Assembly: GCA_022709525.1 (NCBI GenBank)
Contig: JAKLIQ010000004.1
Coordinates: 73,260-137,259, forward strand
Length of the DNA: 64,000 nt
Direction of reading: 5' to 3'
Origin: Candidatus Omnitrophota bacterium
GTDB lineage: Bacteria; Omnitrophota; Omnitrophia; Omnitrophales; Aquincolibacteriaceae
The position numbers were made by a program, and so were the translations under genes. Of the stretch, positions 750 to 62,303 are shown one piece after another. How positions within the stretch are numbered: position 1 is the first letter of the stretch; every line of letters begins with the position of its first letter. Below the pieces are notes generated by a model. It made no database searches and was not told the origin of the DNA. It saw only the letters and a list, made by a program, of their open reading frames with translations.

Positions 750-759
750 TTTTTATTCT

Positions 760-3240: not shown

Positions 3241-3255
3241 TCCATCGGGGGCACC

Positions 3256-4362: not shown

Positions 4363-4379
4363 TGACGAGAGTCTAGCAA

Positions 4380-9540: not shown

Positions 9541-9588
9541 TGTTGATCTCCTTCTAGGCGTTTCAAATATTCCCGAAAGGATATTGCG

Positions 9589-10887: not shown

Positions 10888-10901
10888 AGGAGGTTTATTC
10901 C

Positions 10902-11627: not shown

Positions 11628-11631
11628 CGTC

Positions 11632-16913: not shown

Positions 16914-16983
16914 CGTTCTAGTGCTGGCTTTTCGCCGAAATTTCCGTAAAATGACACTCCACACCCAATAAAGAGATCTTTCC

Positions 16984-19333: not shown

Positions 19334-19361
19334 GCACTATAACTCGTTCAATTTAAAAGAG

Positions 19362-39326: not shown

Positions 39327-39925
39327 AAGCGACCATGAATATCCGAGACTATTTCTCAAATTTGAAACTTTGCTTAGATGCGGTAGAAGTGCGCGACGAG
39401 AAGCAAAATCTGCTCGCCCCGGACCCCGGCTTTCAACGCGCGATCGAATGGATCGCGGCCGCAGGAAAAAAACATGCTAAAGTGATCTTTGTCGGTAACG
39501 GCGGCAGCGCGGCGATCGCGAGCCATCAGGCGGTGGACCTCTGGAAAAACGGAGGCATTCGTGCGATCGCCTTTAATGATGCGTCGTTGCTCACCTGCGT
39601 CGGCAACGATTACAGTTATCCGGAAATTTTTGAAAAACCGGTCGCTATGTTCGCGGACGCAGACGACGTCCTAATCGCGATAAGTTCTTCCGGCCGATCG
39701 TCCAACATCCTTAAGGCCGCGCAAAAAGCCAAAGAACTTGGCTGCCGCGTTATCACGATGTCGGGATTCAAATCTGACAACCCGCTGCGCCAAGCGGGCC
39801 ACGTGAATTTTTATATACCATCCGATAGTTACGGATTCGTCGAAATCGCACATCTCACCCTTTGCCACTATCTGACGGATCATTTCGTTTCGGCCGCGCA
39901 AAAATTCCGGAAAAGCGGGGATTAA
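39323..39925 (+). CDS. gmhA: D-sedoheptulose-7-phosphate isomerase (SIS domain)
   Basis: SIS-domain motifs (VGNGGSAAIASH, ISSSGRS). ATGA overlap with the upstream gene. Confidence 0.8.
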   Translation: MKATMNIRDYFSNLKLCLDAVEVRDEKQNLLAPDPGFQRAIEWIAAAGKKHAKVIFVGNGGSAAIASHQAVDLWKNGGIRAIAFNDASLLTCVGNDYSYPEIFEKPVAMFADADDVLIAISSSGRSSNILKAAQKAKELGCRVITMSGFKSDNPLRQAGHVNFYIPSDSYGFVEIAHLTLCHYLTDHFVSAAQKFRKSGD

Positions 39926-39938
39926 CCTTCTTCTGAAT

Positions 39939-41006: not shown

Positions 41007-41818
41007 TGAAAAACCAGCTTCTTGCAAAAGCCAACGCGATTCGCGACGAGATCCTCAGGGTCTCAATCAAAAATAAAGCCGGCCACATCGCCCCCTCGCT
41101 TTCATCGGTGGATATCCTGACCGCGCTCTACTACAAGATCTTATCCTACAACCCCAAAAAACCTTTATGGGAAGACCGGGATCGAGTGGTTTTTTCAAAA
41201 GCGCACGGTTGTTACGCGCTTTACGCGATCCTTGCCGATCTTAACGTGATTCCCCGGAAAGAATGGGAAGGCTTTTATACATCGGAAAGTTCGCTTTTGG
41301 GCTGCATGGAGCACCGTCCGGAATATGGCCTTGAGGCAGGATGCGGATCGCTCGGGCATGGGTTGCCGATCGCGGTCGGCATTGCTTACGGCGCTAAGCT
41401 CCAAGAAAAAAAATATACGACATATTGCGTGATGGGGGACGGTGAATTCCAGGAAGGTTCGGCCTGGGAAGCGATCCTTTTTGCGATTAAGCATCAAGTT
41501 TCGAATCTTACGATCCTGGTGGACCACAATCGACTTCAAGCTATGGATTTTGTAAAAAACGTTCTTGATTCCGAGGAAAAAGAACTGATCAAGCGGTTGA
41601 AAGGATTCGGGCTTAATCCGATGCTTTGCCCCGGCCATGATCCTAAGGAGATCGCCGACTGCATCCATGCCGCGCAAAAATCAAATGCTTCGGTACCGGC
41701 GATCGTCGTCGCAGAAACGATCAAAGGATTTGGCCTAAAATGCATGGAAAACGTTCCGAAGTTCCATTTCAGAATCCCGAGCGATGAAGAATTAGCTAAA
41801 GGGAAAAGCTATGGATGA
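41006..41818 (+). CDS. Transketolase, N-terminal (TPP-binding) subunit
   Basis: TPP-binding GDGE and HGxxALY-type motifs. 270 aa, split-type transketolase. Confidence 0.85.
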   Translation: MKNQLLAKANAIRDEILRVSIKNKAGHIAPSLSSVDILTALYYKILSYNPKKPLWEDRDRVVFSKAHGCYALYAILADLNVIPRKEWEGFYTSESSLLGCMEHRPEYGLEAGCGSLGHGLPIAVGIAYGAKLQEKKYTTYCVMGDGEFQEGSAWEAILFAIKHQVSNLTILVDHNRLQAMDFVKNVLDSEEKELIKRLKGFGLNPMLCPGHDPKEIADCIHAAQKSNASVPAIVVAETIKGFGLKCMENVPKFHFRIPSDEELAKGKSYG

Positions 41819-42302
41819 AGCCGTTAACTACCGCAAAGATATTCTAGATCTGTTGATCCCTTATTTCCGGAAAGATAAACGGTATTATCTGCTTCTCTGT
41901 GATATGGGATTTGGAGCTGTGGATAAAATACGCGCGGAGTTCCCGGACCGGGTAATCAATTGCGGCATCATGGAGCAGGGAACGGTCGGCATTGCGGCCG
42001 GTATGAGCCTAAGCGGTCTGATCCCGGTTGTTTATTCGATCGTCAATTTCTTGGTCTATCGCGCTATCGAGCAGGTTCGCAATGACGTTATCCTGCAGGG
42101 CCTGAACGTTAAATTCGTCTCGACCGGCGTGAACGATTATTTTAAATTTCTCGGCCCGTCCCATTGTTGCGGCCAAGACGACATCCGTCTTATGGAATTG
42201 ATCCACATGAAAGTCTACGACCCCTACCAAACAAAAGCCCCTTTTCCTGAATTGGTCAATGATTGGATCCGAGATGCAAAGGCGGGATATCTTCGGGTTT
42301 AA
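41811..42302 (+). CDS. Transketolase C-terminal-side subunit reduced to the pyrimidine-binding domain (163 aa)
   Basis: IMEQGTVGIAAGMSL Pyr-domain motif. Lacks the usual C-terminal TKC domain. Overlaps the N-terminal subunit by 8 nt. Confidence 0.65.
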   Translation: MDEAVNYRKDILDLLIPYFRKDKRYYLLLCDMGFGAVDKIRAEFPDRVINCGIMEQGTVGIAAGMSLSGLIPVVYSIVNFLVYRAIEQVRNDVILQGLNVKFVSTGVNDYFKFLGPSHCCGQDDIRLMELIHMKVYDPYQTKAPFPELVNDWIRDAKAGYLRV

Positions 42303-42308: not shown

Positions 42309-44033
42309 TCAGGCCGTTGTTCGCTGTAATTTGTAGACAAAAATACTTGTGCTCGGAAGTTTACGCGAAACAGCGGGGATTTTGCTAAGCATTTTAAAAA
42401 ACCGGAAAAGAAGAGGCTTTGAATCGAAAAGATCGTATTGCTTCCATAGAGACGCCTCAATCCCGGCGTCCTTGAGGGCGACCAACCTCTCTGGCTGAAG
42501 CGTCCGCGAATAAAGAAAAACAGCCGGCTCCTCCGCTAATCGGTCCTTAACGATCTCGATCCAATCGGACGGCAGATCATACCAATCAACGATCACGGCG
42601 CGACGCTCCAATTCCGTATGGCGTTCATAAAGACTTGTATCCGTCGGCGCTTCGCCGTAAACCAAAGGAAAAATATCTTTCTCCGCCCGCACAAGGGCAT
42701 CCTGCATCCCGCCATAATGACCAAGAAGCTTCGAATAAGTGAAAAAATTTAATAAACACGTCGCGACCACAAGCAGAATTAATGCGCTGAGGAAGACTCT
42801 CGACCTCTTTAGAGATGAGAAGAAAGCCTTTTGCAGCTCATCAAGCGCCAAAAAAAATACGATCAGCGACGGCAAATACGCAAAATTAAGAAAACGGCTG
42901 TCAGTTAACGGCATGCTGGAACAAAATCCGCAGAGGATCGCGACGAACCAGACAAGAAACAGATTGAAATGATGACGCCGGATCTCAAAATCCGGCGGGC
43001 CGGTCGGTGAAGGTTTTCGGAGGTTGAAGAGAAAAAAAGCGACAAAAAGACCGAGCCAGAAAAGAACGCCTAAAAAAAGACCGTAATTTTCGGTAAATGA
43101 AAGCGGATTTCTGCTTCGCCGAAAGATCGATTTAAAGGAAAATTCTCCGTCCGGCACAAAAAAGGTTCGTTGCAAACCATTTTGCCATTTCAACGAAAAC
43201 ATTTTTTTGTCTTTAGGAGCTTCCACTTTGCTGGCTGCGAGATTGTCTTCCGGATTGATCTTCCTCGCAATCTCATTAAAAAAAGTTTTGGAAGGAACAA
43301 CAAGAAAAAAGCTTACCGCCACAACAAAAACCGCGATCGCGGTCTTCAAAAAGCCGATCCTTCGGTAAATCGAACGGCATTGCCAAATAAGGAATCCAAG
43401 ACAAACGACCGGAAGAATCTTCTCGGAGGACTTTAATTTGATCGCAAGCCATACCGAAATAAGCCATAAAAACGCGAGGAAAGAGAATGCGATCACGGAC
43501 TTGGAACGCTGCAAGGTCAAACGGCCGAATAAAAGGATCGCCGTGAGCGACAGAATGGAGATGTAGAATTGAAAATCGGCCGAAAAATCCGAAATAAGCA
43601 TGAAGACATTGCTCGGAAAGGTCAGGTAGAGCGCTACGGCAAGCCAGCCCCAGAGCTTGCGTTTTGTCCAATGTGCGATGATGCCGAATAAAAGAGCGGA
43701 TAAAAGACCGCAGCCGACCGCTGTCACCACGTGGAGAGGCGGCAAGGTGTAGCCCAAGCTATCAAATTCGAATTTCAAAAACAAGAATTGCAGAGGGCGC
43801 AGATAGACCATGAGATCGGTCCGCGAAGTCGGCGGATAAAACCAGGATGGCGTGCTCGGATTCAGTGTAAGCTTGACAAGCTCCCCATAGCTAACCGCGC
43901 CGGTACCGCGAACAACCAGCGGATAGTCCGCATTGAAATCGTAAGGAAGACCGACATAACAGGTAAAAAAGAAAGCGAAGGCGACCAGCGCGACCAAACA
44001 TAGATGAACCGTCAAAGTATCTTTTCTTTCCAT
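42309..44033 (-). CDS. Polytopic membrane protein with C-terminal soluble domain; possible GT-C-type glycosyltransferase/polymerase
   Basis: 574 aa with 10 or more hydrophobic helices. No family motif recognised with confidence. Confidence 0.45.
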   Translation of the reverse strand: MERKDTLTVHLCLVALVAFAFFFTCYVGLPYDFNADYPLVVRGTGAVSYGELVKLTLNPSTPSWFYPPTSRTDLMVYLRPLQFLFLKFEFDSLGYTLPPLHVVTAVGCGLLSALLFGIIAHWTKRKLWGWLAVALYLTFPSNVFMLISDFSADFQFYISILSLTAILLFGRLTLQRSKSVIAFSFLAFLWLISVWLAIKLKSSEKILPVVCLGFLIWQCRSIYRRIGFLKTAIAVFVVAVSFFLVVPSKTFFNEIARKINPEDNLAASKVEAPKDKKMFSLKWQNGLQRTFFVPDGEFSFKSIFRRSRNPLSFTENYGLFLGVLFWLGLFVAFFLFNLRKPSPTGPPDFEIRRHHFNLFLVWFVAILCGFCSSMPLTDSRFLNFAYLPSLIVFFLALDELQKAFFSSLKRSRVFLSALILLVVATCLLNFFTYSKLLGHYGGMQDALVRAEKDIFPLVYGEAPTDTSLYERHTELERRAVIVDWYDLPSDWIEIVKDRLAEEPAVFLYSRTLQPERLVALKDAGIEASLWKQYDLFDSKPLLFRFFKMLSKIPAVSRKLPSTSIFVYKLQRTTA

Positions 44034-45812: not shown

Positions 45813-46610
45813 TTAGGAACGGCTCCGCTTCATCAGGGCCCGCAAGATCATCGCAAAAGCTTTCGAGGGAAGACATCGAGCGGCGAAAACTTTCCAGGGA
45901 TGGGAGAATTTCGTAAAAAAGGTACAACGATTTTTTGAAAGATGAGCGAGCGTTTTTCTGGCAATATCCCCGGGAGTTTCTCCCGGGAAAAGATGGACGC
46001 CGTGCGGCTCGGCAGAAACTTTTTCAAAGTTGGTCTTCGTATATCCCGGGCATAACGCCACGATCTTGACCCCTTTTTCCTGATTTTCAGCCCAAATGGC
46101 ATTCGTAAAGATCCGGACAAAGCTTTTTGCGGCCGAATAAAGAGCGGCAAAAGGATAGGGAAGAAAACCGGCGATCGACGCGACATTGATGATCGCGCCA
46201 TACCGGCGGGTTTGCATCGGCGGCAAAAAAAGACGGCACATATGAGCGATCACGGCTGAATCGACCTGGATCAGATTCTGGATCTGTTCATGGCTCATCG
46301 CGCCAAAATCGCCGAAATAACCGAACCCGGCCGCATTCACAAGCACATCGATTTGCTTCTCGCCAACCGCTTGGCGGATCTTTTGAACAGCATCATTCCG
46401 GGAAAGGTCGAGCGAAAGGACCGCCACTTCGATCCCGAAGGTATGCGACCAACTTGCAGCGATCTCCCCGAGCCTTTCCGCTTCAAGCGCCACGAGAAAA
46501 AGATTCATGCCTCGGGCGGCCAGCTGTTCGGCGAAAGCACGGCCGATGCCGGAGGTAGCTCCCGTCACCAGCGCCCAACGGCCTCTTTGAAGAATGGTCA
46601 GCTGTTCCAT
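45813..46610 (-). CDS. SDR-family oxidoreductase
   Basis: ALVTGATSGIGRA and YSAAKS catalytic motifs. Confidence 0.85.
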   Translation of the reverse strand: MEQLTILQRGRWALVTGATSGIGRAFAEQLAARGMNLFLVALEAERLGEIAASWSHTFGIEVAVLSLDLSRNDAVQKIRQAVGEKQIDVLVNAAGFGYFGDFGAMSHEQIQNLIQVDSAVIAHMCRLFLPPMQTRRYGAIINVASIAGFLPYPFAALYSAAKSFVRIFTNAIWAENQEKGVKIVALCPGYTKTNFEKVSAEPHGVHLFPGETPGDIARKTLAHLSKNRCTFFTKFSHPWKVFAARCLPSKAFAMILRALMKRSRS

Positions 46611-46617
46611 CAGAGGC

Positions 46618-47394
46618 TCAGCTCCTTTTCCTTCCTCGATAAAATCCAGGGATCAATTGTTGAGCGAGCCAAATCCCGCGGAAAAGGATTCTCGCCCGGA
46701 AAGGGAATATCATGGAAACGCGGTTTGAAACTGCAAATTTGGCAATGGCTTTAACGGTTCGATCCACTGAGACCGAAAACCAATTTTTAATCTGCGTCAT
46801 GATCTTCGGAAATTTATCCGAACTTGAAACGATCGGAGTCAATACAGGGCCCAGCACGACCCATTTAAATTTCAAGTTTGTTTTGCGATACATTTCGCAA
46901 AAAACTTTAAAACTCTGGGTCAGGGCTTTTTTGCTGATGTAATAACCCAAACAATAAGGGTTCGCGGCATAATTTGTCACGGAGGAAATGGCGACGATCT
47001 TTGTTTCGGGCAATTGATGTCGCAACGCAACAAGAGGGGCGACAAAATTCAAGGCACCGAACAGATTGGTGTTAAGGACTTCGCGGAACCCATCGAGAGA
47101 AAAAAACTCATCATTATCGACTTTATTAATACCGGCATTCAAAACGAATATGGACGGGACTTTTTTCCGATCTACAAGATCGGCAATAAGCTTTTTGACC
47201 GCGGCAGCATCCTGGATATCCACTTTATGGAATTCCACAGTAGGATAAAGAGCTTCGAGAGCGGCGTCTTGACGCCGGTTCACCGCGAAGACTTTGATGC
47301 CTTTCTTGACGTAAAAATCCATTAACCCGCGGCCGATGCCCGAAGTCGTACCCGTGATCAAAACAGAACTGCTATCATTTTGTGTGAACGCCAT
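46618..47394 (-). CDS. SDR-family oxidoreductase
   Basis: VLITGTTSGIGRG and YYISKKA motifs. Confidence 0.85.
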   Translation of the reverse strand: MAFTQNDSSSVLITGTTSGIGRGLMDFYVKKGIKVFAVNRRQDAALEALYPTVEFHKVDIQDAAAVKKLIADLVDRKKVPSIFVLNAGINKVDNDEFFSLDGFREVLNTNLFGALNFVAPLVALRHQLPETKIVAISSVTNYAANPYCLGYYISKKALTQSFKVFCEMYRKTNLKFKWVVLGPVLTPIVSSSDKFPKIMTQIKNWFSVSVDRTVKAIAKFAVSNRVSMIFPFRARILFRGIWLAQQLIPGFYRGRKRS

Positions 47395-47544: not shown

Positions 47545-48063
47545 GTGGATGAAACTATGTCGGCACCGGCAAGCATTTTGGCGTTCGGTTTTAGTACTTT
47601 TTTTTGTTGTTTATGCCTGCACGTCCTCCTATGGCGCTTGCGACATCCCCATCATCATGTCGGAGCTCTATTGAGCGTGTTCTTTATCCCTGGCGCTGTT
47701 CTGATTGGGCTCATTGCCCTTGGATGTCGTCAGCTTACTCTTGCCGACCTTGCGGCAATCGCCATTCTTCATACCGCGCTCAGTTGCGCTTATATCCAAA
47801 TTTATCCGGCAAGCCAGGCGGATAGCCCATCGCTAAAAATACTTGTCTTGGTCGGGAGGTCCGAAACAGGACTAACTGCCGAAGAAATCCGGTCTTTTTT
47901 TGATCCAAAAACCCTATTCTCGGACCGGATCCATGATCTTTTAAATGCCAAACTTATTTATCAAAGCGGAGAAAAGCTGGCCCTTAGCTCGAAAGGTGAA
48001 AAAATGATCGCGCCGTTTTTAATGCTTCGAAAAGCCCTGGGCCTTCCGGCGGGGAGGGGTTAA
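47545..48063 (+). CDS. Hypothetical small membrane protein (172 aa)
   Basis: 2-3 N-terminal transmembrane helices and a C-terminal soluble ~70-aa domain. First of two equal-length tandem genes. Confidence 0.45.
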   Translation: MDETMSAPASILAFGFSTFFCCLCLHVLLWRLRHPHHHVGALLSVFFIPGAVLIGLIALGCRQLTLADLAAIAILHTALSCAYIQIYPASQADSPSLKILVLVGRSETGLTAEEIRSFFDPKTLFSDRIHDLLNAKLIYQSGEKLALSSKGEKMIAPFLMLRKALGLPAGRG

Positions 48064-48064: not shown

Positions 48065-48583
48065 ATGACTTCCCGCTATCTTTTTCTACTGCTCTTATTA
48101 ATAAGTTCGCCCTTCTGCATCTTTTTGCTTCATATCTTCCTTTCAAGGATCTTGCGGAAATTCAAACCTCATATCGCCCCGCTTCCCGTCGCGGCTTTTT
48201 CGGTCCTTTGCAGCTATCCTTTGATGGGTTATGCATTATGGATGTGTTTTCTTAAATTTTTAACAGGAAGCGATGTTTTGGGATTCGGATTATATGCATT
48301 GATCGTTTATACATGTTTTTCGTTCTGCTATTTCATACTTTTTACCATGAGTGAAACGGCCAGAAGGATCCACATCCTTCGAAAGCTCAGGGAAACCGGC
48401 CCTCTTTCCGAAGATGCTCTGGCTGCCGATTATGCCGCTGAGGATATGCTGGATGTGCGCCTAAGACGCATGGTCGAGTTAAAACAGCTGCGCCTCGTTA
48501 AAGACCGTTTTATACTTAAAAACCGGTTGCTCTGGTTAGCAGGGACTGCGCTTTCGGCCTGGGCCAAAGCGCTCGGGTTCTAA
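48065..48583 (+). CDS. Hypothetical small membrane protein (172 aa), probable paralog of the upstream gene
   Basis: Same length and topology. Starts 2 nt after the upstream stop codon. Confidence 0.45.
   Translation: MTSRYLFLLLLLISSPFCIFLLHIFLSRILRKFKPHIAPLPVAAFSVLCSYPLMGYALWMCFLKFLTGSDVLGFGLYALIVYTCFSFCYFILFTMSETARRIHILRKLRETGPLSEDALAADYAAEDMLDVRLRRMVELKQLRLVKDRFILKNRLLWLAGTALSAWAKALGF

Positions 48584-49003: not shown

Positions 49004-49020
<17 letters not shown>
48736..49020 (+). CDS. Excisionase/MerR-type helix-turn-helix DNA-binding protein (94 aa)
   Basis: LLKVSPSTMMRMIKNGLIGAAKVGKQYRI has the HTH_17/Xis-family pattern. Confidence 0.55.
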
Positions 49021-51898
<2,878 letters not shown>

Positions 51899-51899: not shown

Positions 51900-52976
51900 A
51901 TGCATAACGCTCATCATTTACCACTTTTTTTTCGCGTGGATGCCGGCCTCCAAATGGGAACAGGGCATCTGATGCGTTGTCTGGCCCTTGCGCAGGCCTG
52001 GCATGCTCTTGGCGGTAAAACATTTTTTATAACAAAACGGATCGCTCCGGCCCTGCGTCGCCATCTTCGAACCGCCGGCGTTTCTGGAATATGCGAGATC
52101 GCTGCGGCTCGAAATGACGCAAGGAAAACTATTCGGTTTATTCAGGCAAACACGAAGGGGCGAAACCCCTGGATGGTCGTTGATGGCTATCATTTTGGAG
52201 CAAATTACTTAAAACAGCTTCGATCGGCGGGCATGCGCCTGCTTGTAATCGATGATCACGCTAAAATGCCGATTACCTATGCGGATCTTTTATTAAATCA
52301 AAATGCCTACGCCTCCAAGAAACTTTATTCGTTTAAAAAGTTAAAACGTCCGCCCCAGTTTTTATTGGGAGGAAAATATTGCCTGCTTCGGCGCGAATTC
52401 TGGAAGCGGGGAAAAAACCCGGAAAATCAAGATGCCGCCGAAAAAGTCCTGGTCACCATGGGCGGCGCGGACCCGTACGGCGCGACAATAAAGATACTCA
52501 AAATGCTCGCGGCGGCCGGGGATCACCGTTTGAAGCTTACCGTGATCGTGGGGGCGAATAATCCGCGCGTATCGCTTATCCGGCATTTTGCTCAATGCTC
52601 AAAGCTGTCGATTCGGGTTGTGAAGAATGTAAAAAATATGACCCGATGGTACCGCTGGGCGGATCTTGCGATTACCGGCGGGGGAACGACCTGTTGGGAA
52701 CTTGCCTGGGCAGGAGTCCCGATGATGACGGTTACCTTAGCAGACAACCAGCTTATGATCACACGCTGCCTGCACCGCGGAGGATTTGCGATCTCTTTAG
52801 GTTGGCATGACCTTCTCGACCAAAAAAAATTCAACCGGGCTTTAAATCAATTGAGATCGGATGGCTTACGGAGACGCCGTATGAGACAGGCTTTGCAAAA
52901 AATCATCGATGGGCAAGGGGCGCTCCGCACCGCTCGGGCGATTATGACGCGTGCAAAAACAATAACGGGGGCATGA
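51900..52976 (+). CDS. pseG: UDP-2,4-diacetamido-2,4,6-trideoxy-beta-L-altropyranose hydrolase (PseG; MurG-like GT-B)
   Basis: FRVDAGLQMGTGHLMRCLALAQ matches the PseG N-terminal signature. 358 aa. Confidence 0.75.
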   Translation: MHNAHHLPLFFRVDAGLQMGTGHLMRCLALAQAWHALGGKTFFITKRIAPALRRHLRTAGVSGICEIAAARNDARKTIRFIQANTKGRNPWMVVDGYHFGANYLKQLRSAGMRLLVIDDHAKMPITYADLLLNQNAYASKKLYSFKKLKRPPQFLLGGKYCLLRREFWKRGKNPENQDAAEKVLVTMGGADPYGATIKILKMLAAAGDHRLKLTVIVGANNPRVSLIRHFAQCSKLSIRVVKNVKNMTRWYRWADLAITGGGTTCWELAWAGVPMMTVTLADNQLMITRCLHRGGFAISLGWHDLLDQKKFNRALNQLRSDGLRRRRMRQALQKIIDGQGALRTARAIMTRAKTITGA

Positions 52977-52977: not shown

Positions 52978-53748
52978 ATGCGCATCCTTTATTTAGCAAA
53001 TAACCGATTAGGGCTGGAAGTGCTGCGATGGCTTAAAAACCGGGGAGAGAATATTGTTGGACTCGTCCTTCACCCTCCTCAAAAACAAAAATATGCCAAA
53101 GAAATAAAACAGATCGCCAAACTTGCTTCGCGGCTTGTGCTTGACGGTTCAAAACTCCACACAAGTCGCTCCCAAAACACACTGCGGGAAATGAATGCTG
53201 ATGTCGCTATTTCGGTTCTTTTTGATTACATCTTAAAACCCGATTTCCTCGCTCTTTTTCCCAAAGGCGTGCTGAATCTACATCCGGCCCTCTTGCCTTA
53301 TAACCGAGGACAATACCCGAATGTGTGGAGCATTGTTGAAAACACGCCCGCCGGCACAACGCTGCATTATATCGACGCCGGCATTGACACCGGAGCGATC
53401 CTTGCTCAAAAGAAAGTTTTGATGGAACCGGTTGATACCGGAAAAACGCTTTACCAAAAATTAGAGAAGGCCTCTCTGGACCTTTTCAAAGAATCCTGGC
53501 CGCGTTTTATTAGAGGAAAATTGAAGGCTAAGACCCAAAAAAATAAAAAAGGCACCTACCACCGCACTCTCGATGTGAACAAAATCGATTTGATTGATCT
53601 CAATAAAAAATATAAAGCCGGTGATCTGATCAATATCCTTCGGGCACGCACTTTTGAGCCATATCCCGGGGCTTATTTCATCAGCAAAGGAAAGCGTGTT
53701 TATTTAAGTCTCGCGTTAAATTATGATCCAAAGGGGCGCCGATCCTGA
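52978..53748 (+). CDS. Formyltransferase-family protein (Fmt/PurN-like catalytic domain)
   Basis: NLHPALLPYNRG (Asn/His) and HYIDAGIDTGAIL (Asp) catalytic motifs. Confidence 0.7.
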   Translation: MRILYLANNRLGLEVLRWLKNRGENIVGLVLHPPQKQKYAKEIKQIAKLASRLVLDGSKLHTSRSQNTLREMNADVAISVLFDYILKPDFLALFPKGVLNLHPALLPYNRGQYPNVWSIVENTPAGTTLHYIDAGIDTGAILAQKKVLMEPVDTGKTLYQKLEKASLDLFKESWPRFIRGKLKAKTQKNKKGTYHRTLDVNKIDLIDLNKKYKAGDLINILRARTFEPYPGAYFISKGKRVYLSLALNYDPKGRRS

Positions 53749-53749
53749 C

Positions 53750-54379
53750 ATGGCCAATCTTTTTATGGGCACTTTTGAAACGGTTCTTTCCGAAGTGATC
53801 AATTTTATTCCCATCGACTGCATTCTGGCGGAGGACAAACCCGCTAGCGCTAAAGTCGTCGCGTTGGGGAAAAAACTTGGCCTTGAGGTGCGGATGTTCC
53901 GAACTTATGACGAATTAGTTGCTCAAACCGGCGATTTTAAAAAAATCGGAATTTGTTTTATTGCAGGCTTCGGTACAATCCTTCGAAATGATTTTATCCA
54001 GAAATGCGATGCCGTCGTAAACATGCATCTTGGAGATGTCGCGGATTGCCGCGGACGGCATCCTCTGCCAACCGCCATCTTAAGAAAGGATCGTATGATG
54101 ACGGCGACGATCCATCTGATCGACTCTGAAAAGATCGATGCGGGCCCGATCCTCGGAAAAACAAGTCTCCCGATCGATTATGACAAGAACTATACAGCCA
54201 ATGAAATAGAACTTCTTAAAGCCGCTGTCCAATTAACGCGTGAAGTTCTGAACCAATACAAACGTACGGGCTCTTTCCGGGGACAACCCTGGAAAGCGCC
54301 CGACGGAAGTTACCAACCAAAAGTCCCGTCTGAAACGCTTGAACGTGTATTTAGAGCGAGGACGCTCAAGGAGCTTTGA
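53750..54379 (+). CDS. Second formyltransferase-family protein (paralog)
   Basis: NMHLGDVADCRGRHPL and TIHLIDSEKIDAGPILG motifs. TGA/ATG coupling with the upstream gene. Confidence 0.6.
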   Translation: MANLFMGTFETVLSEVINFIPIDCILAEDKPASAKVVALGKKLGLEVRMFRTYDELVAQTGDFKKIGICFIAGFGTILRNDFIQKCDAVVNMHLGDVADCRGRHPLPTAILRKDRMMTATIHLIDSEKIDAGPILGKTSLPIDYDKNYTANEIELLKAAVQLTREVLNQYKRTGSFRGQPWKAPDGSYQPKVPSETLERVFRARTLKEL

Positions 54380-54380: not shown

Positions 54381-55103
54381 ATGAAGGTCGTGATCAGCCA
54401 GCCGCGCTACCTTCCGGCTCTCAATTACTTACAACGGCTTTGTTTTGCGGACTTGTTCGTATTTCTTGATACGGTACAGCGTCAATCGCGGGGATGGGAG
54501 AACAGGAACCAAATCCTGAACGGCGACCAAGCTAAGTGGCTTACCGTGCCCATTCGTTCTTCTTCACGTGAATTGATCAAACATTCGATCATCGATCATC
54601 CTGACTGGATCAAAGAGCATAAGCTTTCACTTGTCAAAGCTTACGAAAAGCATCCGTTCTTTGAAAAAAAATCGATCGATGCTTTTTACAAAGACGCCGA
54701 GATCGTTTTTCAAAATTCAGAAGGAAGATTCGGCGCCGTGATAACTCATTTATTAAAAAACGCGTGCGCTCTTTTTGGCTTTTCTCCAAAAATTATTTTG
54801 GCGAGCGAATTACCGCACACCTTTGACCTAAGTCACGGACCGGCAAAATTGGCCGACATTTGCAAAGAGATAAAGGCGACCGCCTATATTTCAGGGCCTA
54901 ACGGCCGCGCGTACGGGGTTCGCGAGGCGTTTGAGGGAAGCCCCATCAAAGTTTATTTTCATGATTTCAAACACCCCCAGTACCGCCAACAAGGGCGGTC
55001 GGGATTTACGCCCTATCTTGCTTTTTTCGATGCTCTCTTCAATGTCGGTTTTGAAAAAACAAAGGAGTGGATCCATGATAAACCTGTCCTCTCGGAAACA
55101 TAA
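54381..55103 (+). CDS. WbqC-like family protein
   Basis: N-terminal MKVVISQPRYLPALNYLQRL...FLDTVQ pattern typical of WbqC-like proteins. AAGGAG site upstream. Confidence 0.6.
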   Translation: MKVVISQPRYLPALNYLQRLCFADLFVFLDTVQRQSRGWENRNQILNGDQAKWLTVPIRSSSRELIKHSIIDHPDWIKEHKLSLVKAYEKHPFFEKKSIDAFYKDAEIVFQNSEGRFGAVITHLLKNACALFGFSPKIILASELPHTFDLSHGPAKLADICKEIKATAYISGPNGRAYGVREAFEGSPIKVYFHDFKHPQYRQQGRSGFTPYLAFFDALFNVGFEKTKEWIHDKPVLSET

Positions 55104-55773
55104 GATCCTCGTAGTGGCCGCACACCCGGATGACGAAATCCTGGGTTGCGGCGGAACAATAGCGCGCTTGTCAAAGGAAGGGCATGAAGTGCATATTCTC
55201 ATTTTAGGGGAGGGCGCAACCTCTCGCGACCAATCCCGGAATATCGCAAAACGAAGTGCCGCGCTTAAAAAACTCCGGCTTTCCGCGGAAAAAGCCGCAA
55301 AGGTCTTGGGGGCGTGTCGTGTTCATTTCCATGACTTTCCGGATAATCGTTTTGACAGTGTCGCCTTGCTTGATATTGTAAAAGCGGTCGAGCAGGTCAA
55401 AGAAAAAATTCGTCCTTCGATAATTCTGACGCATTTTGCACATGATCTTAATATCGATCATCAAAAGACCTTTAAAGCGGTATTGACGGCCACGCGGCCG
55501 ATGAAAAACGAAACCGTGAGAGCCGTTTATTCCTTCGAAATTCTTTCCTCTACCGAATGGCAGTACGCACACCCTTTTCCGGCGGATACTTTCATGGATA
55601 TTTCGGACTTCTTCGCCCGCAAACTTAGAGCATTAAAGGAATATGCGCAGGAAATGAGAGGGCCGGACCATCCGCGCTCATCCCGAGGAGTAACGCTTAA
55701 TGCGGAACTTTGGGGGCTTAAGACGGGGACTCAATACGCGGAAGCATTACAACTAGTGAGGCAGATCATTTAA
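55075..55773 (+). CDS. PIG-L/LmbE-family N-acetylglucosaminyl deacetylase
   Basis: ILVVAAHPDDEILGCGGT metal-binding motif and an HxxH region. AAGGAG site upstream. Overlaps the upstream gene by 29 nt. Confidence 0.8.
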   Translation: MINLSSRKHKILVVAAHPDDEILGCGGTIARLSKEGHEVHILILGEGATSRDQSRNIAKRSAALKKLRLSAEKAAKVLGACRVHFHDFPDNRFDSVALLDIVKAVEQVKEKIRPSIILTHFAHDLNIDHQKTFKAVLTATRPMKNETVRAVYSFEILSSTEWQYAHPFPADTFMDISDFFARKLRALKEYAQEMRGPDHPRSSRGVTLNAELWGLKTGTQYAEALQLVRQII

Positions 55774-55775: not shown

Positions 55776-56840
55776 ATGAAAAAAACTTTAAAGATCGGAC
55801 ACAAGATCGTCGGAGAAGGGCGGCCGGTATTTTGTATTGCCGAACTCTCGGCGAACCATCTGCAGAATTACGGACTCGCGGTTAAAATGGTCCGCGCCGC
55901 AAAAAGGGCGGGAGCAGACGCCGTAAAGGTGCAAACCCTCACGCCGGACACCATGACCCTGGATTGCCATAACCAACACTTCCGGATTAAGGGAAACACG
56001 CCGTGGGATGGCCAAACCTATTACCAGCTTTACAGTCAGACCTGCATGCCGTGGGCCTGGCATCAAAAACTCGCGCGACTGGCGAAATCGCTCGGGCTCG
56101 TTTTTTTCTCTACGCCCTATGACACAAGCTCTTCCGATTTTCTTGCAAAACTCAAAATGCCAGCCTACAAGATCGCGTCGTTCGAATTAACCGACATCCC
56201 TTTCATCCGGCATGTCGCAAAAAAGAAAAAGCCGATGTTGATGTCCACCGGGATCGCTACGCTCGCGGAGATCGATGACGCCATCCGCGCTTGCCGATCT
56301 GCCGGAAACTCAAAACTGATCCTTTTAAAATGCACCTCGATGTATCCTACCCCGTTGACCGAATTGAACCTGCGCCATATTCAAGAACTCCGTAAGCATT
56401 ACGGCGCTTTGGTCGGTCTTTCCGACCACACGCTGGACTCGTCGGTCTCTGTAGCCGCGGTAGCGCTCGGGATCTGTGTGATCGAAAAACACTTCACATT
56501 GGATCGGAAGCTGGGGGGGCCGGACGCCGCCTTTTCTATGGAGCCGCATGAATTCAAAGAAATGGTCCGCTTGATCCGGAAAACGGAAGCCATGCTGGGA
56601 GAGAAACGTTTCCGCTTGAGCGCCTCGGTGAAAAAGAACCGTCAATTTTGCCGTTCGCTTTTTGCAGTCCAGGATATCAAGCGCCATGAACGCTTTTCTC
56701 CGAAAAATATCCGTTCGATACGCCCAGGATCCGGGCTTCCGCCGAAATATTACGATTTCATATTGAAAAAAAAGGCAGGCAAGGACATCCGCCGGGGAAC
56801 ACCCCTGGCTTGGTCCATGATCTCAACCCGAACTCATTAA
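55776..56840 (+). CDS. pseI: Pseudaminic acid synthase (NeuB family with C-terminal SAF domain)
   Basis: GEGRPVFCIAELSANH, KVQT and SDHT motifs of the NeuB/PseI family. 354 aa. Confidence 0.85.
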   Translation: MKKTLKIGHKIVGEGRPVFCIAELSANHLQNYGLAVKMVRAAKRAGADAVKVQTLTPDTMTLDCHNQHFRIKGNTPWDGQTYYQLYSQTCMPWAWHQKLARLAKSLGLVFFSTPYDTSSSDFLAKLKMPAYKIASFELTDIPFIRHVAKKKKPMLMSTGIATLAEIDDAIRACRSAGNSKLILLKCTSMYPTPLTELNLRHIQELRKHYGALVGLSDHTLDSSVSVAAVALGICVIEKHFTLDRKLGGPDAAFSMEPHEFKEMVRLIRKTEAMLGEKRFRLSASVKKNRQFCRSLFAVQDIKRHERFSPKNIRSIRPGSGLPPKYYDFILKKKAGKDIRRGTPLAWSMISTRTH

Positions 56841-56853
56841 CCCGGAGGTTACC

Positions 56854-57927
56854 GTGACAAAAGTCAACGAACAAAAGATCACCACCAATCCTTTTTATCA
56901 CTATCAAGACTTGTGGAAATCCGAAAATTTCAAAAAATGGGAAGCGGAACAGTCGGATGAATTCAAAAAATACCGTCGATTATGGCAAGAATGCCCGCGC
57001 CTGCGGAAAGCGCCTCCGGCCCCGATCAGCATCAATCTTGAATTGACGGATGTTTGTAATGCCGGCAATAAGCCTTGCATCATGTGCCCGAAATGGTTCC
57101 TGAAACCCCATAATCAATTCATGGCCTATGAAGATGCGGTTCGCGTTCTTGATGAAGCGAGATCGCTCGGCGTCTACGCCGTAAACTTGAACGGGGCCGG
57201 AGAATCGCTCTTGCATAAGGATTTCCCGAAAATCGTTCAATATGCCCGAAAAATCGGCTTTCTGGATGTGATGGTTCACACGAATGGAACGATGCTGACC
57301 CGTGAAATGTCGGAAAAGCTGATCGACGCGGGCCTGACGCGCCTCATCGTTTCGGTGGATTCGCACATTCCGGAGATCTACCAGACCATCCGACCCAATT
57401 TTAAATTTTCGACGGTCTATCAGAACGTAAAAAATTTTATCGCCGTCCGCGACCAGAAAGGGAAGCGCGAGCCTATTTTGCGTTTGACCATGGTCGTTAT
57501 GAAACACAATGTCGATACTATCAAAGACACGATCAAGTTCTGGTCCTTCGCCGATTACATCACGATCAATGATTGTATGTACTTTGACGATTTTAAGGTC
57601 TTTGATTTCGATAAGCAGAAAATCAACAGCGAGGCGAAACAAAAAGGCCTTATCTACGCCTGCGCGCCGCTTTATCAGCAGCTAACGGTAACGATCGACT
57701 TCAAGATCATCTCTTGCAGCACCATTTACGCAAAAAACTACAAGATCCTTGGCCATTACGGCAAACAATCACTCAAAGAGGCCTGGGAGGGAAGAGAGCT
57801 TGCCGAAATGCGCAAAGCTCACGAAAGCGGGCGCTGCACCGACATCCCATGCTGCGAAAAATGCGATCTTCCCCAGATTGAACTTTTGAAAAAGATTCGT
57901 GAACAAGATGGAGTAATGCTGCGCTAG
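56854..57927 (+). CDS. Radical SAM-like protein with unusual CX6CX2C cluster motif and C-terminal Cys-rich region
   Basis: ELTDVCNAGNKPCIMCPKW, with C-terminal CTDIPCCEKC. GTG start preceded by GGAGG. Confidence 0.65.
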   Translation: MTKVNEQKITTNPFYHYQDLWKSENFKKWEAEQSDEFKKYRRLWQECPRLRKAPPAPISINLELTDVCNAGNKPCIMCPKWFLKPHNQFMAYEDAVRVLDEARSLGVYAVNLNGAGESLLHKDFPKIVQYARKIGFLDVMVHTNGTMLTREMSEKLIDAGLTRLIVSVDSHIPEIYQTIRPNFKFSTVYQNVKNFIAVRDQKGKREPILRLTMVVMKHNVDTIKDTIKFWSFADYITINDCMYFDDFKVFDFDKQKINSEAKQKGLIYACAPLYQQLTVTIDFKIISCSTIYAKNYKILGHYGKQSLKEAWEGRELAEMRKAHESGRCTDIPCCEKCDLPQIELLKKIREQDGVMLR

Positions 57928-57936: not shown

Positions 57937-59649
57937 ATGCCGGCTCTTATCGAGAAAAATATAATGAGCACAAAAAAGGTCGCCATCCTGGAAACAAAAG
58001 CGCAAGCGGACTTTTTCTGCGCCCAACGGCAAGCCCAGGAGTTTTCACGTGTTGCGATTTTCTTTCCTAAGCGGTTCATTCGCGCCGCCTCCGCCTGGCC
58101 GCTCGCTTACGAAGATGGCTATACGGACAACCGACATCTTTACCGTCAACAAATGGTGCTCTGCCGCTACGTCCAAGATCTATGCCGCGATCTCGTCGGA
58201 ATCCATCCCGATCTGATCGTTAACGGCATTAATCTACTCAATTGTTTTTTTAGGGATCTCTTTTATTTCGTTTATGCTCTATACCGAAACGAAAAGTTCT
58301 TCCACGCTTTTCTCGAAAAAGAGCGCTTTGAGCGAGCTGTGATCCTTAAAGAAAAATTCCAGACCGCGGAAAATAATCCCTTGAATCAACACTTTGAGGA
58401 ATTCTGCCATCGAGAAAGGATCCCGACAGATATCCTCGAACTACCGCTTAAGAAAAAAAATCCAGACAAAAACGCCGATTCGGATTTATTGAAAAAAATC
58501 TTAAATTTTCTCACGCGATTGCGTTACAGGACCGGCCCGCAAACCCTTCTGGCTATGAAAGATTCTTTGTTTTTTCTCTTGGCAGATACGATGCGAGGTC
58601 AGGCACTTGCGGCTTTCCCTTCTAAGGTCAATTACCGACGTTTTTTTGAATATTTTTCGCGCGACATTCAAATCCATCATCTCATTAAAACTGCCATCCC
58701 TGAACAAAAACCACTGCTACCTTTCGAGCTCCCCGAACCAAGGATTGATAATGTGGTCATACCGCTTCGCTCAGAGCTTTTTCGCCGTTTCATTTCTGAA
58801 AAAGCAGCCTTGGTTCGAAGTATTTTACCGTCACTTTCCGATTTTTTAATCCGGAGCAAACCGGAAAAAATCATTCTTGATGAAGATATGACCGTGATCG
58901 CTCGCACTTTAGCGTTGCTGGCGCGAAAAAACCGAATTCCCACTACCGTCGTCCAACATGGTTCTTTGATCCGAGAAGATGCAGCGCCCGGCTTCTTTCC
59001 CCTCGAAGCCGACAAATTGGTCGTTATGGATAAGATGATTCATCGTGAACTATGCGACATTATTCCTTCAGAACGGATGGAGATTAATGACTATGGTTAT
59101 TTCAATAATTTGACCACCTACGCCGGCCCAGCCCGCTCAACTGCACTGCTAAAACAACATGGCCTCGAATCCCAAAAATATATCCTTGTTATCAATCCGA
59201 ACAATAAATGGACCGGCATGCGCGGCATTCCGATCCGTCATATGACGCCGGCGGTCTATGAACGCTTCCTGGAAGGACTTTTGTCCCTTGTTCAGCGATT
59301 CCCGAAAATGATTTTTGCTCTCAAATTAAGGCCCGGCGATCTCGCGCCTGAAAAATATGCTTACTTGGACGCGGATTTTCAAAAACTCCCTAATTTCCAT
59401 CTCGTCGCGGGAAATCAAGAAGCGGCATGGGGACTTTTAGCCACCGCTTCTTGCGTGATCTCACCCGTATGGTCAACCGCCGTGGTTGAAGCGATAAAAT
59501 TGAACCGGCCCGTTTTTTTCTGGGATCTGCAGGAAGCTTACGAAAAACTCGATAGCCTGTTGCTTGATCCTAACTTTCATCGCGTCAAAACAAAAGAGGA
59601 GCTTGAATCCGCCCTCTTAAAACTGTCGGCTAATGAGATCTTTCGATGA
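57937..59649 (+). CDS. Hypothetical protein (570 aa); possible GT-B/capsule-synthesis-like transferase
   Basis: The C-terminal third resembles GT-B/TagF/KpsS-type C-domains (VISPVWSTAVVEAIKLNRPVFF). No definitive motif. Confidence 0.45.
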   Translation: MPALIEKNIMSTKKVAILETKAQADFFCAQRQAQEFSRVAIFFPKRFIRAASAWPLAYEDGYTDNRHLYRQQMVLCRYVQDLCRDLVGIHPDLIVNGINLLNCFFRDLFYFVYALYRNEKFFHAFLEKERFERAVILKEKFQTAENNPLNQHFEEFCHRERIPTDILELPLKKKNPDKNADSDLLKKILNFLTRLRYRTGPQTLLAMKDSLFFLLADTMRGQALAAFPSKVNYRRFFEYFSRDIQIHHLIKTAIPEQKPLLPFELPEPRIDNVVIPLRSELFRRFISEKAALVRSILPSLSDFLIRSKPEKIILDEDMTVIARTLALLARKNRIPTTVVQHGSLIREDAAPGFFPLEADKLVVMDKMIHRELCDIIPSERMEINDYGYFNNLTTYAGPARSTALLKQHGLESQKYILVINPNNKWTGMRGIPIRHMTPAVYERFLEGLLSLVQRFPKMIFALKLRPGDLAPEKYAYLDADFQKLPNFHLVAGNQEAAWGLLATASCVISPVWSTAVVEAIKLNRPVFFWDLQEAYEKLDSLLLDPNFHRVKTKEELESALLKLSANEIFR

Positions 59650-61268: not shown

Positions 61269-62303
61269 ATGAAAACGCGGCTTTTACGGTATTTAAGATG
61301 TCCTCATTGCCAAAGCGCCGAACTCGGGTCTCACGCTTTCAAAACCCATGATTCCGAGATCGAAAGCGGACTGATCATTTGTCAGACATGCCGCGTATGG
61401 TACCCGATCACGGAAACCATCCCGATCGTTTCAACCAATCCCTTGCTTGTGGAAGAGATTAAAAAAGAAATGCGAGCCGTTTGGGGCCATGAATTCGATT
61501 TCAAGAATCTCGTTACTTCAAGAAACGCCGCATCAGACCAAACTTTCGCTTTAACGCAACGGGAACAAATCGAACACTATAACGAAGAGGCCGTGCGTTA
61601 TGATGCCGAAATCGCCGATACGGTTTTTTGGCGATCGGTGGTCGATCAAACCATTTGCCAATGGGCCCGATCCGAAAAAGTCCGCGAGGGAATCATTCTC
61701 GAGATCGGATGCGGCACGGGCGCTTCGACCGTAAAACTTGCCAAAATGGGCTGCCGCCTGATCGCTTTGGATATCTGCCTCACAGCCGCTAAACGCGCGC
61801 TTGCGAAGGTTCGCGATCAGGGTCTTGGTGAAAATGTCGACCTGCTTGTCACTGAGGCGGAATCCCTGCCGTTCCGCCATGATATTTTTACAGCCAGCGT
61901 TTTTACGGGCGTGCTTCATCATGTCGCCAGTCCAAGCCAGGTACTCAAAGAAATGTCGCGGGTCTTAAAAAGCGGCGGATGGGTCTACGGGCATGAAAAT
62001 AACGCGTCCGCCTTTCGCTTTCTTTTCGATTTGATGATGAAAATGAAACAGCTCTGGCATGAAGAGGCGGGAACCCATCCGCTTCTCGAATCTAAAAAAA
62101 CAAAAGAGTGGGGACGCCAAGCGGGCCTGGATATTCAAACCGACAGCATCGTTTTCCTGCCGCCTCATTTCTTTAATCTGCTTTCGCAGCGAACAGCCCA
62201 AAAGCTTTTGCGTATGACCAATAAATTTTTCGGATGGATCCCATGGCTTAAAGATCAGGGAGGGCTTTTAATCATTTCGGGAATCAAGACGGGTCCGGCG
62301 TAA
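61269..62303 (+). CDS. Class I SAM-dependent methyltransferase with N-terminal Trm112-like Zn-ribbon
   Basis: CPHCQS...CQTCRVWYPITETIPI (Trm112/DUF343-like), then motif I LEIGCGTGAS. Confidence 0.8.
   Translation: MKTRLLRYLRCPHCQSAELGSHAFKTHDSEIESGLIICQTCRVWYPITETIPIVSTNPLLVEEIKKEMRAVWGHEFDFKNLVTSRNAASDQTFALTQREQIEHYNEEAVRYDAEIADTVFWRSVVDQTICQWARSEKVREGIILEIGCGTGASTVKLAKMGCRLIALDICLTAAKRALAKVRDQGLGENVDLLVTEAESLPFRHDIFTASVFTGVLHHVASPSQVLKEMSRVLKSGGWVYGHENNASAFRFLFDLMMKMKQLWHEEAGTHPLLESKKTKEWGRQAGLDIQTDSIVFLPPHFFNLLSQRTAQKLLRMTNKFFGWIPWLKDQGGLLIISGIKTGPA

Follow-up and report, generated by a model that had tools for sequence, protein, structure and literature searches.

The gene and its immediate surroundings

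The gene rSAM-A of a Candidatus Omnitrophota bacterium encodes a 357-amino-acid (aa) protein with the features of a twitch-type radical S-adenosylmethionine (SAM) enzyme, and lies in a cluster of genes for the biosynthesis of a pseudaminic acid (Pse)-type sugar. It was analysed within a stretch of 64,000 nucleotides (nt) of contig JAKLIQ010000004.1, referred to here as the window, and all positions given are those of this window (Table 1). The gene starts with GTG and is preceded, at a distance of 3 nt, by the ribosome-binding site GGAGGT. The initial annotation of this DNA had described a radical SAM-like protein of this length coupled to the pseudaminic acid synthase gene pseI and carrying an unusual CX6CX2C motif. 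These coordinates were found to be exact, the gap to pseI being 13 nt, and the motif CNAGNKPCIMC was located at residues 68–78. A further 9 nt separate rSAM-A from the next open reading frame (ORF), which codes for 570 aa. An identical 357-aa product has been called on 10 public contigs and is labelled 'radical SAM protein' in a Candidatus Omnitrophota metagenome-assembled genome (MAG).

The guanine-plus-cytosine (GC) content of rSAM-A is that of the neighbouring genes. A scan for promoters and terminators identified no terminator-like site on the plus strand between pseI and rSAM-A. Promoter-like sites in the window did not exceed the level of shuffled sequence, and terminator-like sites were somewhat commoner than in the shuffles. 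With nothing notable between pseI, rSAM-A and the 570-aa ORF, the scan fits a single transcription unit, and the nine genes upstream of rSAM-A, from pseC to pseI, are apparently co-transcribed.

Fold and superfamily membership

Two Pfam families were matched by the rSAM-A protein. Radical_SAM (PF04055) aligned to residues 63–229 with 60.1 bits against a cut-off of 29.5 (E-value 3.8e-16), and SPASM to residues 270–338 with 25.5 bits against a cut-off of 21.5 (E-value 1.6e-5). Both profile matches are far beyond chance. None of the NCBIfam cut-offs was reached, and the best matches were mostly confined to the generic radical SAM core. TIGR04317 (W_rSAM_matur, a tungsten-cofactor maturase) scored 106 against 380, TIGR02668 (MoaA) 80.6 against 325 and TIGR02666 62.5 against 284.

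An AlphaFold2 model computed from an alignment of 19 sequences displayed high confidence (predicted local distance difference test [pLDDT] 91.5, predicted template modelling score 0.91). It consists of a radical SAM barrel core with six beta strands, followed by a small C-terminal domain. In a Foldseek comparison of this model with the Protein Data Bank (PDB), all 50 matches listed were radical SAM enzymes. BtrN (4m7t) ranked first, its E-value being 5.7e-11 and its template modelling score, relative to the target, 0.72. Next came BlsE, MoaA, SkfB, viperins, DesII and the anaerobic sulfatase-maturating enzyme anSME. A sequence-profile search of the PDB with the rSAM-A family (HMMER) also returned BtrN first (E-value 4e-26). 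Profile matches and predicted fold together assign rSAM-A to the radical SAM superfamily. Thus, the radical SAM-like nature proposed in the initial annotation is upheld, including the barrel core expected in a structure prediction.

The core is preceded by an N-terminal extension, in which T11-N12-P13, Y15-H16-Y17, Y40-R41 and W44 are invariant within the rSAM-A clade. A YRxxW-like helix also occurs in distant relatives and in rSAM-B, a paralogue described below. Further along, the residues G114-A115-G116-E117 presumably correspond to the GGE motif of radical SAM enzymes.

Cluster ligands and the auxiliary domain

Conservation was assessed in two alignments, a first one of 19 homologues and a wide one of 162 sequences (14 rSAM-A, 5 rSAM-B and 143 others), in which the first set was joined by the best representatives from the exhaustive search described below. 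The cysteines invariant among the 19 homologues were C68, C75, C78, C270, C288, C334 and C337. In the wide alignment, the three cysteines of the motif singled out in the initial annotation were present in all 162 relatives, and E117, N144, S167 and D169 were likewise conserved. Among the 143 sequences that belong to neither the rSAM-A nor the rSAM-B clade, 139–141 kept the four C-terminal cysteines.

SPASM domains proper contain seven or eight conserved cysteines (CX9-15GX4C ... CX2CX5CX3C ... C) and two auxiliary clusters, and the twitch domain represents a shortened form of the SPASM domain with three or four conserved cysteines and one [4Fe-4S] cluster (PMC9477430, PMC9012708). The pattern of SPASM proper was not found in rSAM-A: only four conserved cysteines lie C-terminal to the core, spaced C-x17-C...C-x2-C, and none lies past C337. 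This indicates a twitch domain with one auxiliary cluster rather than a seven-cysteine SPASM domain. Similarly, HMMER aligned the C-terminal domain of rSAM-A to the twitch domain of BtrN cysteine for cysteine (E-value ~1e-12).

The initial annotation had likened the C-terminal segment CTDIPCCEKCD to SPASM/twitch auxiliary clusters. The twitch part of this claim stands, with the Pfam SPASM threshold passed and four cysteines for one cluster, and a full SPASM domain does not. Within the segment, position 328 is cysteine in 11 and position 333 in 4 of the 14 members of the rSAM-A clade, and C334 and C337 alone are ligand candidates. Two cysteines upstream of the segment, C270 and C288, complete the auxiliary set. 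On the alignments and the model, C68, C75 and C78 together with C270, C288, C334 and C337 constitute the predicted full ligand set for a SAM-cleaving cluster and a Cys4 auxiliary cluster.

The CX6CX2C loop

Among 172 family proteins, the motifs CX5CX2C and CX6CX2C were found only in the close clade of rSAM-A (P0001–P0012), and the length of the first spacer varies between CX5 and CX6 from one orthologue to another. All other full-length family proteins, roughly 150 near relatives, contain CX3CX2C, some with an additional upstream cysteine. The restriction of the longer spacers to P0001–P0012 indicates that the two or three extra residues are a trait derived in a single clade. Precedents are known in the superfamily, as RadicalSAM.org lists CX4, CX5, CX6, CX7, CX8, CX9 and CX11 variants (PMC9477430). 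In that resource CX6CX2C occurs in Megacluster-5-2 and CX5CX2C in Megacluster-4-10, and none is listed for the SPASM/twitch Megacluster-1-1 (PMC9477430). Thus, rSAM-A shares a lengthened first spacer with other CXnCX2C enzymes, but the listed variants sit in other megaclusters.

Since the clade has kept its SAM-binding motifs intact and is evidently constrained (mean column identity of 71% among 12 rSAM-A orthologues), the enlarged loop appears from the sequences to be unusual yet no bar to function. The clade offers a natural CX5/CX6 series within the SPASM/twitch group in which the effect of loop length on the SAM-binding cluster could be studied.

Association with pseudaminic acid-type loci

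Seven independent rSAM-A loci were compared: the window, five further loci (L001, L002–4, L005, L006–7 and L010–11) and an archaeal one (L012). Genes for NeuB, Formyl_trans_N, WbqC and PIG-L proteins are present in all seven, and a CTP_transf_3 gene in four of the six loci other than the window (L001, L002, L006 and L012). At each of the seven, rSAM-A lies no more than 10 kb from a NeuB or CTP_transf_3 gene. The association of rSAM-A with Pse clusters is strict. Of the two partners suggested in the initial annotation, the pse genes therefore accompany rSAM-A throughout, but the downstream 570-aa gene does not, as it has no homologue. Even distant relatives of rSAM-A, 27–31% identical, directly adjoin NeuB or CTP_transf_3 genes.

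rSAM-A is also the most evenly conserved gene of the module. Its product is 55–64% identical across loci, compared with 32–61% for PseI, and PseI identity falls to 32–33% in loci where rSAM-A stays at 55–64%. The archaeal locus (Candidatus Woesearchaeota archaeon JAGVXP010000012.1, 4541–16066) contains the whole module, running from PseB to rSAM-A, a methyltransferase and rSAM-B and then to NeuB. Most of its genes are 38–61% identical to those of the window, including PseC (54%), WbqC (54%), PIG-L (55%), PseI (61%) and rSAM-A (60%), and PseG is 25% identical. The occurrence of the whole module in an archaeon of the DPANN group at this level of identity suggests that the Pse-type cluster moved between bacteria and archaea as a block.

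The Pse-type cluster of the window is listed in Table 1, in which the boundaries of the upstream genes are those of the public gene calls on the same contig. rSAM-A matches none of the six canonical Pse enzymes (PseB, PseC, PseH, PseG, PseI and PseF) and is thus an accessory gene of the pathway. No PseH-type GNAT was found in the cluster by Pfam or in the public gene calls. With an N-formyltransferase in its place, the product may be an N-formyl derivative of Pse. This N-formyltransferase contains an N_formyltrans_C dimerization domain and has no orthologue in the other rSAM-A loci. A literature search on the function of WbqC returned nothing useful.

Table 1. Features of rSAM-A and of the Pse-type cluster, in window coordinates
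Feature	Position	Strand	Basis or remark
rSAM-A gene, 357-aa twitch-type radical SAM enzyme (predicted), GTG start	56854..57927	+	ORF and translation, Pfam, AlphaFold2, Foldseek
Ribosome-binding site GGAGGT	56845..56850	+	Read from sequence
N-terminal extension, residues 1–56: predicted beta-hairpin and two helices; conserved TNPFYHY and YRxxW motifs	56854..57021	+	Model, clade alignment
Radical SAM core, residues 63–229 by Pfam; six predicted beta strands extend to residue 240	57040..57540	+	Pfam, AlphaFold2
Cluster-binding loop C68-X6-C75-X2-C78 (CNAGNKPCIMC)	57055..57087	+	Cysteines invariant, 162/162
G114-A115-G116-E117, 'GGE'-type SAM-binding motif (putative)	57193..57204	+	Clade-invariant; E117 invariant, 162/162
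C241 (in NDCMYFD), clade-invariant non-ligand cysteine right after predicted strand 235–240; candidate hydrogen-atom donor	57574..57576	+	Alignment, model
Twitch (truncated SPASM) auxiliary-cluster domain, residues 270–338; putative ligands C270, C288, C334, C337	57661..57867	+	Pfam SPASM, alignments, BtrN alignment
CTDIPCCEKCD, residues 328–338; ligand candidates C334 and C337 alone	57835..57867	+	162-sequence alignment
pseC	49004..50173	+	NCBIfam equivalog cut-off passed
pseB	50190..51176	+	NCBIfam equivalog cut-off passed
CTP_transf_3 cytidylyltransferase	51173..51898	+	Pfam
pseG	51900..52976	+	NCBIfam equivalog cut-off passed
Sugar N-formyltransferase with N_formyltrans_C domain	52978..53748	+	Pfam
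Formyltransferase-like gene	53723..54379	+	Pfam, public gene calls
WbqC	54381..55103	+	Pfam
PIG-L deacetylase	55075..55773	+	Pfam
pseI	55776..56840	+	TIGR03586 score 457, cut-off 340
570-aa orphan ORF, outside the conserved module	57937..59649	+	No homologue

Downstream of rSAM-A follow, in order, the 570-aa orphan, a MOP flippase, a methyltransferase with an N-terminal Trm112p-like zinc ribbon and a PMT_2 glycosyltransferase. The 570-aa ORF gave no match in Pfam, NCBIfam or the PDB sequences, and a search of 5.8 billion protein clusters returned only itself. It is present only in assemblies with an identical rSAM-A gene, and its single-sequence AlphaFold2 model (pLDDT 37) was unusable. Kinship with a 573-aa ORF elsewhere in the window (42309–44033) or with the ~600-aa proteins of other loci, all lacking Pfam matches, was considered and rejected, as the proteins are unrelated.

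The downstream methyltransferase of the window (344 aa, 61269–62303, plus strand) has a common architecture with the ~325-aa methyltransferase of the module (L001 12173–13150, L012 8694–9680 and others): an N-terminal cysteine-rich ribbon and then, at about residues 145–240, a class I methyltransferase domain. A Pfam Trm112p match to the ribbon was obtained with the window protein only. The 344-aa enzyme was rejected as the module methyltransferase since it did not match a profile of the module enzymes. Just upstream of the Pse cluster, two adjacent ORFs of 172 aa each (47545–48063 and 48065–48583, plus strand) have no Pfam or NCBIfam match, and a small HTH_17 gene is publicly annotated between this pair and pseC.

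Distribution of rSAM-A and its paralogues

rSAM-A is a rare gene. A word-indexed search of the 5.8 billion protein clusters identified 13 close relatives (55–86% identity) and about 10 that are distant. When 1.84 billion representatives at 50% identity were scanned exhaustively with HMMER, 185 matches reached an E-value of 1e-30 or below; one of them was a close representative, and the next best was 36% identical. A scan of 185,579 species, each represented by one genome, yielded a single rSAM-A locus, that of the Candidatus Woesearchaeota (DPANN) archaeon, whose protein is 60% identical. For one partial relative, the annotation names a Bacteroidia MAG as the source. No curated family or solved orthologue covers rSAM-A or rSAM-B, and rSAM-B and two further paralogues of 425 and 342 aa score below every NCBIfam cut-off.

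The paralogue rSAM-B is a protein of 351–360 aa with a canonical CX3CX2C motif, 24–27% identical to rSAM-A and 70–80% identical between loci. Together with the ~325-aa methyltransferase, it lies beside or near rSAM-A in six of the seven loci, that is, in all but the window. A tblastn search of the 64-kb window (E-value below 1e-3) found no gene for rSAM-B, the module methyltransferase or the ~600-aa proteins, and no rSAM-B was found in the 10 kb downstream of rSAM-A on the same contig. rSAM-B is at least 20 times commoner than rSAM-A, with at least 278 clusters at 90% identity, of which more than 120 are at least 54% identical, compared with 13 clusters for rSAM-A. A class I methyltransferase accompanies it in every case.

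rSAM-B was also found in cultured sulfate reducers, such as Salidesulfovibrio onnuriiensis (CP040751.1). In this organism and in another Omnitrophota MAG, its neighbours code for PIG-L, WbqC, GNAT, formyltransferase, methyltransferase, NeuB and CTP_transf_3 proteins and for the 425-aa and 342-aa twitch paralogues. In each of these two loci (CP040751.1, 513437–534519, and QZKN01000156.1), NeuB is encoded twice and CTP_transf_3 two or three times, and four or five genes code for radical SAM proteins (rSAM-B, the 425-aa SPASM form and others), in addition to PIG-L, WbqC, formyltransferase and the methyltransferase linked to rSAM-B. S. onnuriiensis thus represents a cultured organism at hand for studying the twitch paralogue family.

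rSAM-A and rSAM-B have in common an N-terminal helix, the radical SAM core, a four-cysteine twitch domain and a setting in NeuB/PIG-L/WbqC/formyltransferase clusters. In contrast to rSAM-A, rSAM-B has the CX3CX2C motif and an aspartate in place of C241, is far commoner, is paired with a methyltransferase and does not occur in the window. By sequence, rSAM-A is a diverged paralogue of this commoner enzyme of nonulosonic acid (NulO) clusters. Several twitch radical SAM paralogues, none with a described function, populate the NulO clusters of anaerobes and of one DPANN archaeon. A full-text literature search found no paper joining 'radical SAM' and 'nonulosonic', and co-mentions with pseudaminic acid were incidental only. 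One uncharacterized radical SAM ORF has been recorded in some lipopolysaccharide (LPS) loci of Legionella.

Comparison with characterized twitch enzymes

By sequence profile and by fold, the best match to rSAM-A is BtrN, the 2-deoxy-scyllo-inosamine dehydrogenase of the butirosin pathway (4M7T/4M7S). Both have a C-terminal twitch domain with a single auxiliary [4Fe-4S] cluster and four cysteines, as predicted for rSAM-A, and BtrN acts on an amino-sugar-like small molecule, as rSAM-A presumably does. The auxiliary cluster of BtrN is ligated by four cysteines and is thought to be the electron acceptor in a two-electron oxidation (PMC9012708, PMC10337720). However, BtrN contains the canonical CX3CX2C motif (C16/C20/C23; PMC9012708) rather than CX6CX2C, belongs to an aminoglycoside cluster rather than to Pse biosynthesis, and differs from rSAM-A in the invariant extra C241. 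The rSAM-A protein exceeds BtrN by about 100 residues; it has the 56-residue N-terminal extension, and its barrel core is longer. The two are not orthologues: identity in the structural alignment is ~16%, and the profile alignment consists of two stretches separated by a segment of unequal length.

MoaA, the GTP 3',8-cyclase, resembles rSAM-A in its twitch domain and full-length core, and the HMMER alignment covers residues 53–246 of the family profile (E-value 3e-19). Its auxiliary cluster is held by three cysteines, and GTP binds at the open iron (PMC9012708); rSAM-A, in contrast, has four conserved auxiliary cysteines. Moreover, no molybdopterin genes were found near rSAM-A, and the NCBIfam MoaA score was far below its cut-off.

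A third comparison concerns the aminoglycoside epimerases. According to a summary in PMC10991966, the neomycin epimerase NeoN uses a non-ligand cysteine, Cys249, as hydrogen-atom donor. HygY of hygromycin B biosynthesis is a twitch epimerase that a single cysteine mutation turns into a dehydrogenase, as worded in the title of a reference in the same paper. NeoN and HygY are small-molecule, sugar-tailoring enzymes, as is proposed for rSAM-A, in which C241, at the catalytic end of the barrel, is a candidate counterpart of their non-ligand cysteine. Their substrates are aminoglycoside pseudo-oligosaccharides and not nonulosonic acids. rSAM-A is set apart from the known twitch enzymes by its enlarged loop, 56-residue N-terminal extension and NulO context.

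Proposed reaction and alternatives

Sequence, model and context make it highly probable that rSAM-A is catalytically active as a twitch radical SAM enzyme and acts in the NulO pathway. The initial annotation had suggested a modification of the Pse skeleton that has not been described. An undescribed radical modification of a Pse-type sugar fits both the Pse context and the fact that no paper was found to connect radical SAM enzymes with nonulosonic acids, and we infer that rSAM-A would carry out such a step.

The kind of reaction can be named only tentatively. Position 241 is cysteine in all 14 rSAM-A sequences, aspartate in all five rSAM-B sequences and mostly tyrosine, leucine, phenylalanine or methionine in the 143 others. 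In the model it comes right after the last barrel strand, and in barrels of this type that end lines the SAM and substrate pocket. HMMER places the stretch containing C241 opposite residues 190–207 of MoaA, which begin EIRFIEFMD. No extra aminotransferase or reductase for processing a ketone was found with rSAM-A inside the window operon by Pfam, NCBIfam or gene calls. The invariant C241 and this absence lead us to favour an epimerase over a BtrN-like dehydrogenase, by analogy with NeoN and HygY, although the specific assignment stays short of probable.

In the proposed mechanism, C68, C75 and C78 would hold the SAM-binding cluster on the enlarged loop, and C270, C288, C334 and C337 a fully cysteine-ligated auxiliary cluster in the BtrN-like twitch domain. 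Reductive cleavage of SAM would generate a 5'-deoxyadenosyl radical, which would abstract a C–H hydrogen from a Pse-type sugar, that is, from Pse, its cytidine monophosphate (CMP) form or a 6-deoxy-hexose precursor. The thiol of C241 would then return a hydrogen atom to the opposite face, resulting in redox-neutral epimerization of an unactivated stereocentre as in NeoN and HygY. The Pse stereoisomer would finally be exported by the products of the downstream genes.

Several observations weigh against epimerization. The closest solved structure, BtrN, is that of a dehydrogenase with the same Cys4 auxiliary cluster. A ketone could be reduced by the products of two short-chain dehydrogenase/reductase (SDR) genes about 9 kb upstream on the other strand (45813–47394). 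The presence of rSAM-B and a methyltransferase next to rSAM-A in six of seven loci makes a multi-step transformation possible, and the substrate might be an N-acyl substituent rather than the sugar skeleton.

A BtrN-like dehydrogenase is the first alternative, and it is judged unlikely. Here the hydrogen of a carbinol at C4 or C8 of a Pse-type sugar, or at a hydroxyl of the hexose precursor, would be abstracted, and electron transfer from the radical so formed to the Cys4 cluster would yield a keto-nonulosonate. The ketone could be the end product or could later be reduced, aminated or methylated. The top rank of BtrN by profile (E-value 4e-26) and by fold supports this reaction, as do the four conserved auxiliary cysteines, which agree with BtrN and not with the three cysteines and open iron of MoaA (PMC9012708, PMC10337720), and the link drawn in reviews between low-potential, fully ligated auxiliary clusters and two-electron oxidations (PMC9012708). 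The 2-oxoacid:ferredoxin oxidoreductase genes of the window give the host an anaerobic appearance, a plausible setting for radical SAM dehydrogenases. However, the PDB contains no twitch sugar epimerase, so that a top match to BtrN cannot tell a dehydrogenase from an epimerase, and at ~16% identity the likeness is a distant one. The core of rSAM-A from the VSVD strand to the twitch domain is ~50 residues longer than that of BtrN, no conserved ketone-processing partner accompanies rSAM-A in the window, and the invariance of C241 is left without explanation.

Equally improbable is some other radical chemistry of the sugar or its N-acyl group, such as AprD4/DesII-like dehydration or deamination, BlsE-like decarboxylation, C–C bond formation or modification of an N-formyl or N-acyl substituent. 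BlsE, DesII and viperin, too, match the fold strongly. PIG-L, WbqC and formyltransferase, constant companions of rSAM-A, belong to N-acyl remodelling, a methyltransferase and a second radical SAM gene adjoin rSAM-A in six of seven loci, and the paralogue family is heavily diversified within NulO clusters. Nevertheless, the protein showed no hallmark of any one of these reactions, all NCBIfam scores (BlsE, viperin and others) stayed far from their cut-offs, and Pfam detected no B12 domain for methyl transfer.

A role outside the NulO pathway is very unlikely: the best NCBIfam matches are W_rSAM_matur, MoaA and spiro-SPASM maturases, SPASM/twitch enzymes are frequently maturases for ribosomally synthesized peptides that are modified post-translationally (RiPPs; PMC9012708) and an altered cluster loop could in principle impair function, but a RiPP maturase, an anaerobic sulfatase maturase and a MoaA- or tungsten-type cofactor maturase were each rejected on widely missed cut-offs (106 against 380 and 80.6 against 325, most matches covering the generic core), only four auxiliary cysteines and a sugar cluster at all seven loci with no precursor peptide or cofactor genes among the called neighbours, and the invariant cofactor ligands and SAM motifs of the most conserved module gene argue against an inactive, decaying paralogue.

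Flagella, capsules, LPS and S-layers carry pseudaminic and related nonulosonic acids, which influence how phages and hosts recognize the cells. To our knowledge, the known diversity of nonulosonic acids is explained by conventional enzymes, namely SDR dehydratases and epimerases, aminotransferases and acyltransferases. It is quite possible, if somewhat less than even in likelihood, that rSAM-A, rSAM-B and their paralogues of 425 and 342 aa constitute an unrecognized radical toolkit with which anaerobic bacteria and DPANN archaea produce uncatalogued nonulosonic acids (stereoisomers and keto-, amino- or C-modified forms of Pse). In this toolkit rSAM-A would be a cysteine-dependent epimerase of an unactivated Pse carbon, and the CX5-6CX2C loop a functional adaptation, for example to the reductant partner. 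If true, epimerization or oxidation at unactivated positions of a nine-carbon sugar acid would represent a new reaction class in NulO biosynthesis, and new sugars would be predicted on the surfaces of Omnitrophota and Woesearchaeota. Sugar clusters with uncharacterized radical SAM genes are not uncommon, and the enzyme class is familiar. The association with Pse genes in two domains of life, the clade-specific motif and the candidate catalytic cysteine make an undescribed step of NulO chemistry directly testable, as Pse intermediates and assay formats for BtrN and HygY exist.

Other features of the window

The GC content drops from ~50–55% to ~45–49% at roughly 20 kb (positions 1–20000 compared with 20000–64000). 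At this point an island of ~44 kb starts, with genes almost all on one strand that code for glycosyltransferases, PMT_2-type GT-C enzymes, flippases and sugar-nucleotide enzymes. Before it, at 16984–19333 on the plus strand, lie three adjacent 2-oxoacid:ferredoxin oxidoreductase genes (POR_N/PFOR_II, TPP_enzyme_C and POR), which fit a host that lives anaerobically and can draw on low-potential ferredoxin for the reduction of radical SAM clusters. Within the island, a gene at 23615–26944 (plus strand) encodes a protein of 1109 aa in which a C-terminal class I methyltransferase (residues ~909–1060) is the sole recognizable domain, the first ~900 residues matching no Pfam family.

A second radical SAM/SPASM gene was found at 39939–41006 (plus strand). 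Its 355-aa product scored 66.5 and 29 bits with Pfam, reached no NCBIfam cut-off and is unrelated to rSAM-A, being 26% identical over the core only. Its neighbours (37761–42302) are, on one flank, a PfkB-kinase/cytidylyltransferase fusion and a SIS-domain isomerase and, on the other, a transketolase split into an N-terminal and a pyrimidine-binding half. By its gene content, this group seems to be a further sugar pathway that includes a radical step.

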